Shown here one piece after another: positions 28,249 through 44,463 of a stretch of DNA of 64,000 nt (position 1 is the first letter of the stretch; each line of letters starts with the position of its first letter). Both the position numbers and the translations under genes were made by a program. This stretch comes from Mytilus trossulus. Its lineage: Eukaryota. The stretch lies in the NCBI RefSeq assembly GCF_036588685.1, contig NC_086376.1, positions 44,826,001 through 44,890,000 of the forward strand. Direction: 5' to 3'. The notes beneath the pieces were generated by a model, which saw nothing but the letters and a program-made list of their open reading frames with translations, had not been told where the DNA came from and searched no databases.

Positions 28249-31200
28249 ATTTTTTATATTCAGTTCTGAATTAAAATTTTAAGTGTCTTTACAGAGTATG
28301 TTGTTTTACACAATATAACTTCTTTATATACATATAAATATATTTTAATGGGCATATGAGATAAAAAATAAACAAACGCATTAAAAATAAGTTCTTCAAC
28401 ATAAGTCAAACTCTAATTATTTCAAAATTTCTTCCTTACTAACACATTTCCAAAAAAAGGCTCTATTTGTGATGAAATTCACATCTTAGCCTATATTTAC
28501 ACCCTGACGTTTTAGTATTTATATCTAGGATATTTTACAGTTTTAATATATGCTATACTTTAGATATGACAAATGAATATTTCCTACTATGCGTGCAGAG
28601 ATCTACTTTAAAATAAAATATTGAATCTGACTCTGAATCCCCCCTTTTTTCCCATCTGTTTAAAGGCATGTGTTTTTAACTTATTCAATCCAAATTCTAT
28701 CAACATGCATTTACAATCCTTTCACTATGTTAAGTAAATAAGCACTGTAGTCACAACACCTACCCTCCAGTCTTAGCAATATCACTCCTCCATTAAGTCT
28801 GTAAAGTTTTGTTACAGTAACATAACAATTAAATTAACATCATTACAAAACTATTAATTTCTGGCCAGCATTGAGTGTGACCAACAAAGAAATTAAACTT
28901 TCCTTGTAAAGTAGCTTATTTATACTGTATAACAAACCCTAAGATGTTTATATGACATGGGAGCATTTCGTTTGGCACTGTTTGATATTAATGTTACCGA
29001 ATACAATTTTTCATAAAATGACCTACCATTTATAAACAAGATAATTTTACTTTTTGCAACAAGTATTTATCTGATTTCACAAATTAAGTGAAATTGGATC
29101 TATATAGTTCCATGGCCACATTACAAATATAAATGCAAGATCAATATCAGAATCTGTCAGATTGTAGCTTGACTTGTTATATAAAAAGTCTGCTGGGTGT
29201 GAAGACATGATTGCATAATGTGCGGTTATCATGCAATAGTAGAAATGTCATCTGCCTGACCTTATAAATATCCATCTATATTATTAATATTGTAACGATT
29301 TTCATTTCTACAGACTATCAATTATGCTAGTTGTATAATGTTATATTGTATTTCTATTTTTGGACAAATTTAGATTATTTCCTTGTTGTTATACTTAATT
29401 TATTTTGTTTACTTCTCATTTATTAAATCACTTCCTTTAATTAAGTATTATGTCCAATGTTTATAATCTCCATCAATGAGGAAACAGGATCGAATTTATA
29501 TTTTTAATTTTTTGTTGTTGATTAAGTTGTTTAGTAAAATTAGAAAAAATTTTGTGACAATTTCTGGCTTATTTTTCATATAATAAGTTTTAAATAATGT
29601 GAGTTCAGTTACTTTTGTGATTACACATTTTTGTGTACAAAAACCGTGTTTTTGGTGCATTCTTGATTTGTTTTCATCAATTTTGTATACATTGAGTCTA
29701 AAGAAAATTGGGAATGTGTAAATAGCAAAACCAGAAACTAAGAAACCAGAAATCAGAAACTCAATTCCAATATAAGTTTGTGTCACATATAAAACTTGTA
29801 TAGGTGATAAAATTATAACGGAGAAAGACCCATTGGATTCACAAGGTTTGCCAAACATATGTTACAAAAAACATCAACCTTAATAAGAGAGGAATCTGCA
29901 AAAATACATCTTGATGAAGTTTGTTTATAAAAATAAGGATGCACACAATTATACACAAAACTATACATGTGTCTTTTCATATGAATACTGCTACTGCAAG
30001 AGCAAAAAAAAATGTTAAGTAAACACAATTTAGATTCCTACCTGCAAAACAATTTCCTATCAGATTTAATCATTAACTATCTGAATTAATTTAGCATTCA
30101 ATTCTTATAGAAGTTCAGTATGCAAAAAAACAAGTGTATAAAAATATGCAAACAATCTATTTAAGTTTGAAAACAGGATCTTTCCTGGTTTGATTTAGAA
30201 AAAATAAATGACCTCTACTACAGAATTAAAATATATTTTCTTTACATAATTCAATGTTAATATATTTCTTTTTATAAATAAAAGTATTATATACTGCATT
30301 TCTATCTTATAAATTCCAATCTTAACTGATTGAAATATATTAAAAACCTTATTAACAATAAAGTTGAGAATGGAAATGGTGAATGTGTCTCAGAAACAAC
30401 AACCTGAACCAAAGAGCAGACAACAGCCGAAGGCGTGATCAACGGGTCTTAAATACAGGGAGAAAATCCTGCACTCGGATGTCAATTAACACTGGAGAAT
30501 CTTTGCTTTGCCTCCCTATTTCACTGCCTTTCAATTTTGTAATGTTTTCTTAGTATAACTTTGAAACTCTGTATATATCTTTGTAATCTTGATAAGAGAT
30601 TTCAAAAATTTGACACAGCATTATGCAGAACAAAAATTATCAACTCCTTAAGAGTCATCAAATTGTTTTTGCTATATCATATTGGCATTTTTGAGCCTCA
30701 TGAGCTCAAAAACCATTTAATCAAACAAGAATACAATGAAAAGCAAAATTGTCAGTTCATCCTGAACTAGTCTTTTTCATTTTTAAAGGAAATAAAAATC
30801 TTCATCACTCTTCACCATTCCTACTCATTTCTGACTACATTTTCTTAACTTTCTATAATCTTGCATTTTTCCACAACTTTAATAATGTATGAAATATTTA
30901 CCACAAGGCTCTTAAAGCAAACGGAAGGCAATCAATCAAAATATCTCCAGCATGTCTCCACCTTCACTGGCAGACCTATTTGGAAAATCACCGCGATTTT
31001 TGTAAAATATTCGGTGTTTTTTGGCCAATCTCCGCGGAACGGATAATAAATAGAGGTTCATCGTAGATTTTCCGTTTTACAGAATATTTTGCGGTTCTCC
31101 GGAGATTTTCCGTGTCTCAGGGAATTATCCGTTTGTCCGATAAAACGGGTGTGTATTGAGTCATTGATAGAACCAGTGATGCGTGAGCGACGGTTATTAA

Positions 31201-34200
31201 AAGGTCGGTTGTATAATCCGTTATGCGTGAGCGACGTTCAATCATTAATTGATCGTTGTATTATCCGTTAAGTGTGAGGGACGGTTGTATTGAGGTACAG
31301 ATTGTAATATATGTAGAAGTTTACAGAACTATCATTAATCGATTGAGATATACGGAATTTTCAAAAATTTATCACAATTAGTTTCTGTAAATTTAGAGAG
31401 AAACAGATTATATATTTCTCGGGGTTAAAGGTTTACTTTTATGATTGAAAAATACATGTGTATGTCTGAGGCAGAAGATCATTTAAACTTCATTGGCAAA
31501 TAGGATTTTTTAAAACGATCTTGATCACCTGCTGATCCATTAATCTTTCAGAATGAAATGCACATTTATACCTCTTGGGGTTGAAGGCATATATTAGCAA
31601 CATTAACAATATGCTACGATGAGATAATGACAAGTTGCGAATTTTAGTCCGAATGTGTATATATATGAGCATATGGACATACATTCATCTTTATAATTAT
31701 TCAGTTCATCTGTCATTTGTTTTATTAAATTACTTTTCAATTGTGGTATAAATACAATTTTATCATTGTGTAAGACGATTTGAGAATAATGCTTTCATCG
31801 TAAATACTTCAGAAATTATAATTGATTCAAGAACCGTTTATTGGAACAAAAATAAAATGAACGGCCTATAGGAAGTTCTAACCTTAGTTGATATCAGGGG
31901 TCAATTGGTATAGCAGTATGTAACGTAATACAACGATCGTCGATGCATAATGTGCATATGTAAGTATATAGTATGCATGCAACTGGATTTCGACAACTCG
32001 TGGGTTGTCTTTTAGACAAAGAAGTTCCATTTTAAAGATATGAAAGTACGTCAATGCACGTCTTGTAAACTAATCTGTTACTTTTTGAAATATAAATAAG
32101 TTATATTTAAAAGATTGGATGGTTATTTCACACGTATTAAAGTTCTTCTGTCATCATTACTGTTTTTCAATTATTTTTTGAGAGTTCGATCTTAAAACTA
32201 AGTTCGTCCTGACATTTATGGAATATTTGCCACTGGAAGTTAAACAACCAACAATCAATCATCTTATTACAAAATTTAAAATATGCCTGAGCGATAATAT
32301 TCTTTTAAATTTTAATGTGAAAGACAGTTTCTCCTTTTATAAGAAGACACTTCCAGGTCTAATTTTAAGTGTATCTACATTCCGGGACTGAGATTTATTT
32401 ACTATACTAGCAAAAAAAAAGAAAAGAAATGATGATACGTTTATTTTTTAATAATTAAATAATTAACGTTAAAAATATATGTAATTAACTTGATCTAAAA
32501 CTTGACCTCGCTCATGATAGAGAATGTTAAAAATCAATTGTGTCGACTGCACGGGATTTTCCAACGGCGGGAAATACCCTGTAACTATAAACACAGGTGA
32601 TGTTATATACTGACCGATTGTAGAATGTCAATTCAGGGTTAAAGTGATGTGTAATGATTGACATTATCGTGCGCTTGGAAGTTGAGGCTCTAGTAGGTTC
32701 ATTTCAATTGATAATCGAAAATCTAAAATCATTTTTTTTTTCAAATCAACGATGAAGTTTTGGATATTATGGAAGGGATTTTTTTTAAAGACAACAGAGG
32801 TACCTTAAAAGTCTATAGGAAAATATACAAATAAAATAATATAAAACAATTTCGAAGGTCACAACTTGTATCTTATAAATCAATGATAAAGCGACTTCAT
32901 CAGTATTAACAGTTATAAGATTGCAATCAGATGACTTTTAATTTTGTTTGTGTTTCAGGACTGGGAGTGTATAAGATTACCTTATATTACATTGTATTTA
33001 CAAATGTTTGTTTATATTGCTTGACCCTTATGGGTGTAATTTTGAAATAAAGATTAAAAATATATACTTAGGATGTTCCATTCTCAGCATTGTTTCTTGT
33101 CTGTCTGTTCGTTTGTTCGTTCGTCCGTCTGTCCCGCGTCAGGTTGAAGTTTTTGGTCGAGGTAGTGTTTGATGAAGTTGATATTCAATCAATTTTAAAC
33201 TTAGTACACATGTTCACAATGATATGATCTTTCTAAATTTAATGCCAAATTAGAATTACCTCATTCCGTCAGTCCACTCAGGGACTTTCTTGTCCCTGGT
33301 CTGTTAAACATAGAAAATGATAGTGCGGATTGGGCATCCGTGTATACTAGTGACACATTTTTTTTTTAATTTATTAAACTTGTTCTCAGTGGCAGATCCA
33401 GATTTTTTTTATATATAAGGAGAGGGGAGACTAACTGATAATGTCATGAGAGGACCAGCTCCAATCATTCTCAAGTGATTCCCTACATAATCAATATTTA
33501 TTTTTCAACAAAAGGGGCGGACACCGTGTCATTCCCCCTTTATAGCCGACTGAGAAACTCAAAGGGCTGTTTAGGCAGTCAATGTCGTCAAAAACTTCTA
33601 TGTGTTGTATAGCCAGTCATTGTGTCAGTGTAAAACTTCCATGTATATCAATCAATCAAATCAAGACTATTAAAAACTCCTATCAACGCCATTCCCCACT
33701 AAATCCGGCTCTGGTTCTATTAATTTCATTACTTCTTCAGCATACTAGTATCGGTAGCATGTGAGTATGGTAGCACTCCGTAGATAGGTCTGTAGTTTTG
33801 CATGTATGACACTAACAGTTGGCCTAACGTATTAGAAGGCCAGGGTTGGAAGGTCATTCAACATTCTGTGGCTCAATTGCAACTATATTTTCTGTGAAGT
33901 GCTACCTAAGCCGTGGCCAGGTGAACCCTACCCATTTTTTTCAAAGGATTTTCCAATAGCACATCGAAACACTTCCAGCATTCTATATTTTTTTCACCAA
34001 AAAAATTGTACCTCAGCATAATACAGGTCATGAGGTACATTTGTTTGAGGAGGGGGTTTCAATTACTGTTCTTAAGTTTAATTTTCGGGATTTTTTTTTT
34101 ATCAGATTTGCCCTGTTGTCTTTTCTTTTAACTCCGTGTAAACCCTCACACGCGATGTTTACAAAATTATTTAATTGTTTCAAAAATTAAATTTGTTGTA

Positions 34201-44000: not shown

Positions 44001-44463
44001 GTAAAACGGAAAATTTACGATAAACCTTTATTTATTATCCGTTCCGCGGAGATTTGCCAAAAATCGCGGTCATTTGCCAAATAGGTCTACCAGTGCTTAC
44101 AGCTGTTTTATACAGGGAACCAGTTTAGAACCAGTTTCCCAGGACATCAATAATCCAATGTATACATGTCATACATACAAAGTTACAAATTGTCCTCAAC
44201 TTCAATAAGAAATTACTAATTTATCTCTGATGATTAATCACCACATAAAGCAACCGATTTCTGGGAAATAACAAAGCTTTTATCACTAAGTGCTGACCAT
44301 TGAACAGTTTGTCTTATATATACCACTTTAATAGGAAACAATTCTCAAATATGTATATCCATTGTTATTTCTGAAGTATGAGCCATTTCCTTTTTCATAC
44401 TACAGGAATTCATATAGAGATTTTAACAGAAATTGTCATTAGTCTAGAGTACAGACAAACAAA

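Follow-up and report, generated by a model that had tools for sequence, protein, structure and literature searches.

The 64,000-nucleotide stretch of Mytilus trossulus DNA that we analyzed (contig NC_086376.1, positions 44,826,001 to 44,890,000; hereafter, the window) contains a whole non-autonomous transposon of the CACTA type, 13,131 bp long (30965..44095, plus strand). It is one of 44 paired copies of a young, real, and unusually large non-autonomous CACTA-type family in the mussel, and we consider it probable, from comparison of the sequences, that a 35-kb element with matching termini supplies the CACTA transposase that mobilizes this family in trans. CACTG is read at both ends of the window element: the left terminal inverted repeat (30965..31286, plus strand) begins with it, and the right one (43821..44095, minus strand) closes with CAGTG. 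Directly outside each end lies CTT, the 3-bp target-site duplication (left copy at 30962..30964 and right copy at 44096..44098, plus strand). The inverted alignment of 30965-31264 with 43821-44095 gave 84% identity over 301 columns, and complementarity reaches 94% in the core inverted arms of 190 nt. The subterminal direct repeats have spacings of 44 and 47 nt on the left, where three of them occupy 31168-31283, and of 43 nt on the right. Subterminal repeats are a feature of CACTA elements, and the CACTG variant of the termini counts as CACTA-type. A tblastn search with 733-aa and 878-aa transposase relatives (E≤1) found no trace of a CACTA transposase in the element, which thus lacks the internal transposase gene of an autonomous CACTA element. 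In contrast, the hallmarks of non-autonomous ones are present, namely, CACTG ends, a variable 3-bp duplication, subterminal repeats, and a transposase-coding relative with the same ends. The observed-to-expected CpG ratio (CpG o/e) is 0.97 in the interior of the element versus 0.34 and 0.37 in the left and right flanks. An earlier sequence-only reading of the window had described inverted repeats of ~270 bp beginning with CACTG, CTT at both ends, subterminal repeats of ~47 bp, an interior richer in CpG than its surroundings, and no visible open reading frame (ORF) for a CACTA transposase; all of these observations held, as did the assignment to a non-autonomous mobile CACTA-type element.

We searched the genome with the left and right 246 terminal bases and with an exact 19-base terminal pattern, for which the reversed pattern served as the control. 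Both 246-base probes gave 98-100% identity in the best 40 of 97 candidates each, and the terminal 19-mer had 94 genome matches compared to 0 for the control. Ninety-one of these 94 matches and one extra left end formed 46 pairs, and three ends remained single. The pairs comprise 44 elements of the window's family and 2 sister elements, which brings the family to 47 copies (44 paired and 3 one-ended). A 3-bp duplication was present at 44 of the 46 pairs, with 24 different triplets, and absent from 2. Since two random flank triplets match by chance with a P value of 0.025, the CTT match at the window element lies beyond chance. The sequence-only reading had proposed pairing the ends genome-wide and tabulating their duplications, and it had reasoned that a prevalence of unpaired or short independent copies would speak against it; the ends proved to be overwhelmingly paired. 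The 44 paired family copies measure 9,527-27,165 bp (median, 13,108 bp) and add up to 570 kb, which together with 23 kb in one-ended copies makes about 0.59 Mb, or 0.05% of the assembly.

Divergence among copies over ~4 kb of shared body ranged from 0 to 3.1% (mean, 1.6%), and the window's copy, which belongs to a star-like subfamily, differed by 0.5 to 0.8% from its ten nearest relatives. When reads from four DNA runs of two studies (X1-X4, of which X1 may be the assembled sample) were mapped on 29500-45500, depth over the body was ~20-47 times that of the left flank. Although depth is not copy number, this fits a multi-copy family in other animals.

To compare the interiors, we used 28 further family copies fetched whole, one of which contains a second copy nested inside. 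All 29 copies, including the window's, were colinear with the window element and with a 9,778-bp copy on C8. The common body of ~9.8 kb has spread to numerous chromosomes. The differences between copies are deletions and insertions; the readable inserts include frames of long interspersed nuclear element (LINE) and long terminal repeat (LTR) retroelements and short elements with inverted repeats, along with a different element with CACTG ends and, in one case, the family itself. Subfamilies of 9.5-27 kb arise from such carried passengers, which are inherited along the branches of the tree. Nested repeats account for 5,944 of the 12,534 interior bases of the window element (47%, from BLAST and depth, with some boundaries approximate), in line with the several nested repeats noted in the sequence-only reading. 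The insertions show a weak clustering, as 11 of the 27 in a hand-made event list fall within 1.2 kb (scan, P = 0.016).

Several copies stood out individually. At C42:1599761-1624447, one family copy has inserted into another, duplicating TAA, within the zone that other transposons have hit as well. Two 12,613-bp copies at C10:43668941-43695026, identical where aligned, lie 860 bp apart in the same orientation with different duplications; this pair reflects a local hop, and an arrangement of this kind comes before capture in the model for Pack-CACTA elements of Arabidopsis (PMC6379663). Two further pairs of equal-length copies (C2:13266086-13334471 and C2:82587210-82652923), in opposite orientation, 39-46 kb apart, and with separate duplications, are likely local hops as well. 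Finally, the copy at C9:14309265-14323448 holds a nested 4.2-kb element with a different inverted end starting with CACTG, from which we infer a second CACTG family.

The two sister elements carry what the window's family lacks. The larger one (C12:9008939-9044018) is a CACTA element of 35,080 bp with ~690-bp inverted ends and an ACA duplication; the smaller one (C19:2692745-2712202; 19,458 bp, with its own 3-bp duplication) is a deletion derivative of it, without 15.8 kb. Their interiors differ from those of the window's family, whereas the termini agree with those of the window element at 37 of the first 38 positions and also contain its subterminal motif. Among 43 candidates scored in the genome, the PF13960 (DUF4218) domain was found in 2 places, both inside elements with these termini. 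We derived the gene structures by tblastn of predicted proteins. A 733-aa protein (Transposase_21 plus DUF4218) mapped along the whole C12 element, but on the C19 element only from residue 229, and we rejected the latter as the autonomous partner since it lacks the N-terminal domain. An 878-aa protein (PF02992 plus PF13960) mapped on the C12 element in 14 exons, adding three upstream exons to the 733-aa version. The distance from one end of the element to exon 1 of the transposase gene is 1.9 kb, and exon 2 follows after another 16.8 kb; this first intron of 16.8 kb holds a second gene, on the opposite strand, encoding 603 aa. A head-to-head layout of the two genes was discarded, because the 878-aa protein puts exon 1 beyond the second gene. 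The sequence-only reading had been puzzled that the only visible transposase came from another superfamily; this puzzle dissolves, because one of the sister elements, whose ends are the same, holds a gene for a CACTA transposase.

Relatives of the sister-element proteins came from Mytilus species, and one, labeled M. trossulus, was 100% identical over the matched part. Five open versions of the 733-aa transposase are recorded in short public contigs. No homologues of transposase exon 1 alone were found. The 603-aa protein has homologues, none with an assigned function, and Pfam, atlas, and representative searches, in which most matches were to its Pro/Glu repeat, gave no function for it; an ORF2/TnpA-like role is a candidate. 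CpG o/e in the coding sister elements is 0.47-0.50. Methylated gene bodies in invertebrates are expected to be CpG-poor, and the low values are as expected if the sisters' genes are methylated in this way.

From the 37 of 38 terminal bases in common, we favor a model in which the transposase of the 35-kb element, perhaps with the 603-aa protein, would act in trans: it would recognize the termini and subterminal repeats that both elements have and would cut and paste family copies with 3-bp target duplications. Because both copies of the transposase gene in this assembly are defective, a working allele would reside in other individuals. Passengers (Tc1 twice, retroelements, short repeats, and once the family itself) landed in single copies and traveled with them in later jumps. 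Each jump would bring young DNA from an unmethylated source into CpG-depleted, probably intronic, host DNA. The CpG contrast of the window element likely reflects such a recent arrival from unmethylated DNA; the flanks of 57 ends have a median CpG o/e of 0.39, and CpG sites vary among copies more than other C/G sites do (26 of 190 versus 86 of 1,111; P = 0.011, uncorrected for shared descent).

Several observations weigh against mobilization in trans by the 35-kb element. In the 11 exons checked of the C12 transposase gene, there is one in-frame stop, and the C19 copy carries a deletion. Beyond the first 38 bp, the window and sister ends are only 82% alike (over ~245 bp). The body of the window element has nothing in common with the 35-kb element except the ends and short common repeats; thus, the window's family is not a simple deletion derivative of the 35-kb element. 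The genome holds other CACTA-like exons (17 matches, 62-74% on C5). Two C29 copies have identical flanks, for which reason we counted them as one insertion; segmental or haplotype duplication may account for some of the copies. Lastly, the joint 30964-44096 expected of an empty site was absent among the best 15 of 3,338 joints in X1-X4, in tables dominated by high-copy repeats. We also considered a CACTA remnant in the window body and rejected it, as the only tblastn and tblastx signals came from the ends and from short common repeats.

The sequence-only reading had taken the element for a Pack-CACTA-like vehicle carrying captured DNA. In the rival account along these lines, the termini would have taken up a single piece of host chromosome in the distant past, and that one cargo would later have been amplified with the element. 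Such an origin would explain a body unrelated to the transposase element, in which ~6.6 kb has no assigned source; part of the Arabidopsis Pack-CACTA cargo is likewise reported to be of untraceable origin (PMC6379663). One 0.5-kb piece (36684..37171), the sole capture candidate, resembles a locus outside the family (C7:12.906 Mb) through a single colinear match, but this match is patchy (71-86%) and does not extend within 18 kb. Two interior probes (≤3 mismatches), which cover a small part of the 6.6 kb, had 46 of 46 and 45 of 45 matches inside known family copies, and neither these probes nor BLAST revealed a parent locus of the body. None of the 91 interior open frames of at least 43 codons exceeded a Pfam curated cutoff, a screen that short exons of unfamiliar genes could escape; weak subthreshold matches to PRESAN, zf-C2H2, and VATC were dismissed as chance. 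Three putative RNA runs (X7, X9, and X6) covered the element evenly and a fourth (X21) barely, a pattern in which DNA carry-over and intronic read-through are indistinguishable, and no GT-AG joint occurred among the 12 joints listed for the four runs. Varied cargo among family members was not found either: all 29 copies share one body, and the large differences examined were nested repeats or deletions. With 47% of the interior in nested repeats, the Pack-CACTA-like vehicle is unsupported, and we regard even the single ancient capture as unlikely.

Another candidate mover is a different CMC transposase, Chapaev3 or a more distant CACTA, in which case the 35-kb element would merely share the ancestry of its ends with the family. 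The additional CACTA-like exons and the defects in both known transposase copies are compatible with this, and CAC...GTG ends with 3-bp duplications are also described for Chapaev elements of animals (PMC4079192). However, Chapaev3 is reported there to duplicate TWA, which accounts for only 5 of 44 duplications here, and the partner transposase has CACTA domains. The C12 and C19 elements are the sole ones that combine the same terminal 19-mer with a transposase gene, and an exact 19-mer search found no termini of the window type near the other CACTA-like exons. Hence, we judge another CMC mover to be very improbable.

The remaining candidate lies inside the window element itself. A 5'-truncated Tc1-type element is nested at 40183..42625 (plus strand), with a right end reading ...GTACTG and then TA; Tc1/mariner ends carry a CAGT motif. 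The open frame at 40162-41004, the only long one inside, encodes a DDE_3 transposase (E = 1.6e-13) and is open over 280 codons. The TA target and DDE_3 domain assign the passenger to Tc1/mariner, with the left end lost. The Tc1 of the window's subfamily starts within the ORF and is missing its left end and the first ~115 codons. Among the 29 copies, the Tc1 occurs in plus orientation at the window's site in 11 and in minus orientation in 4; in the latter, it sits at a second site ~65 bp away, retains nearly the whole ORF, and is 97% alike. The left end is gone from both nested versions, and two Tc1 relatives that retain one sit outside the family. The other 14 copies lack the Tc1, with an empty TA at the window's site in 11, a variant in 2, and 1 unread, so the family moves without the Tc1, which rides along. 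The "Tc1-type exon" of the sequence-only reading is thus indeed a Tc1 transposase frame, but not an exon: it represents the 3' portion of a nested Tc1, and in other copies the ORF of this Tc1 runs uninterrupted. That this Tc1 drives the family across superfamilies, as its being the sole transposase frame inside and its having entered the family twice might suggest, has almost nothing left to commend it, given its truncation, its absence from whole branches of the tree, the mobile copies without it, and the variable 3-bp duplications in place of TA; the sequence-only reading had likewise implied that it is not the mover.

The rest of the interior alternates between family body and nested repeats. 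The stretch at 31287..33098 is family-specific body, without a source outside the family in the tested background, and is followed by a dispersed repeat (33099..33368; 73-79% to copies elsewhere). In the shared body at 33518..35146, a probe at 33.9 kb matched family copies only, and depth was raised over 34.3-35.1 kb, a part that may hold a further repeat. Run X6 showed a depth of ~60,000 of very short contigs at 34621-35089, compared to ~20 nearby, a signal that may reflect an abundant repeat or a small-RNA source. A nested 1.5-kb dispersed repeat follows (35147..36667), 80-91% alike to copies beyond the family, with about 900 first-look candidates. The "decayed coding sequence" of the sequence-only reading, which we assume to be this segment (35.1-36.7 kb), is likely a copy of this repeat. 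The same 1.5-kb repeat occurs at C1:52629500-52639499, in the arms of an inverted repeat that is perfect over 3 kb or more. Further along are a repeat of very high copy number that contains a GACT microsatellite and a tandem duplication of 155 bp (37260..37699, approximate boundaries), a short dispersed repeat (38750..38891) and a very high-copy repeat (39268..39737), both with further copies in the window flanks, and, beyond the Tc1, family-specific body again (42626..43820), in which a probe at 43.4 kb matched family copies only.

Elsewhere in the window, the minus strand has a GRAM-domain exon (8215-8490) and, at 1441-1830, another exon-like frame from a host gene; given the GRAM-domain exon, the window's copy may sit in a host intron. 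A Copia-type LTR retrotransposon at 9700-14657 has one open frame of 1,434 aa (integrase, RVT_2) and 130-bp terminal repeats that are 97.7% alike, and it looks recent. A CpG-rich patch near 52 kb (51500-53000) may be a promoter or another young repeat. The flanks also contain tandem repeat arrays at 21040-22164, 24349-24689, 27245-27556, and 56387-56623.

Massive presence/absence variation has been reported in mussel genomes, with the role of transposons left open (PMC7653742). The family described here is a concrete young source of 10-27-kb insertions, but it does not explain gene-level variation, because its share of 0.05% is small and no gene was found inside. If the 35-kb element is its mover, a CACTA transposase present in few copies is enough to sustain the movement of a large non-coding family and, with it, the spread of other transposons as passengers. 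Repeat finders with a size limit are liable to overlook the 35-kb partner or to cut it into pieces, and the two genes in it, which databases name "uncharacterized protein," could pass for dispensable host genes. Taken together, these elements might form a single scheme, which we offer as a tentative and rather doubtful proposal: a 35-kb intron-rich CACTA system with an antisense gene in its first intron would still drive a 10-27-kb satellite family that serves as a landing platform, where other transposons would prefer the 1.2-kb zone, lose an end, and hitchhike, and every jump would leave a hemizygous block as large as those involved in the presence/absence variation of mussels. At its boldest, the scheme would take the unassigned 6.6 kb for anciently captured host regulatory DNA.

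Our literature search found no paper on this mussel family; Repbase, Dfam, and the library of PMC10294476 lay outside the search and may already hold it. CMC elements are reported to be present in all mollusc genomes analyzed, and a curated bivalve library includes two full-length autonomous CMC consensus sequences only (PMC10294476). Pack elements are described as carrying host-chromosome DNA (PMC6379663), and Pack-TIRs, named for their terminal inverted repeats and including multi-copy ones, are already known in animals (PMC8277862). The mussel family resembles Arabidopsis Pack-CACTA and animal Pack-TIRs in being non-autonomous, in holding kilobases between CACTA-type ends, and in becoming multi-copy by transposition, but differs in having one body in all copies, for which no parent locus or gene fragment was found. 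The animal survey required a parent with 90% identity and an interior of <5 kb (PMC8277862), and it would have missed the window element for these reasons. The animal CACTA-related element SmTRC1 and its relatives, described as ~4.7-9.2 kb with CCC ends and 2-bp duplications (PMC1636069), are also animal DNA transposons with a Transposase_21 domain, whereas the mussel family has CACTG ends and 3-bp duplications. CACTA elements are also reported to flank a mobile region in Takifugu (bioRxiv 2021.11.16.468883).

The closest match is with the non-autonomous elements of the CACTA superfamily (En/Spm, CMC), which are characterized by terminal repeats, a 3-bp duplication, and a related coding element with a transposase and a second protein (PMC4158355). 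The mussel family agrees with them in its CACTG...CAGTG ends, its subterminal repeats, and its 3-bp duplication, which varies in sequence; it encodes no transposase itself, and a related element encodes a PF02992 plus PF13960 transposase and a second protein. It differs in its inverted ends of ~250-300 bp, in a body that spans 9.5-27 kb and bears no relation to the coding element, and in its 47 copies at 0-3% divergence in a mussel host. CACTA elements far beyond the usual size are described in Chondrus crispus, where enlarged En/Spm elements reach 16-20 kb with 4 or 5 ORFs according to a review (PMC6431247); the 35-kb mussel partner exceeds these, and it differs from them in having two recognized genes, a size due to introns, and a second gene nested antisense in intron 1.

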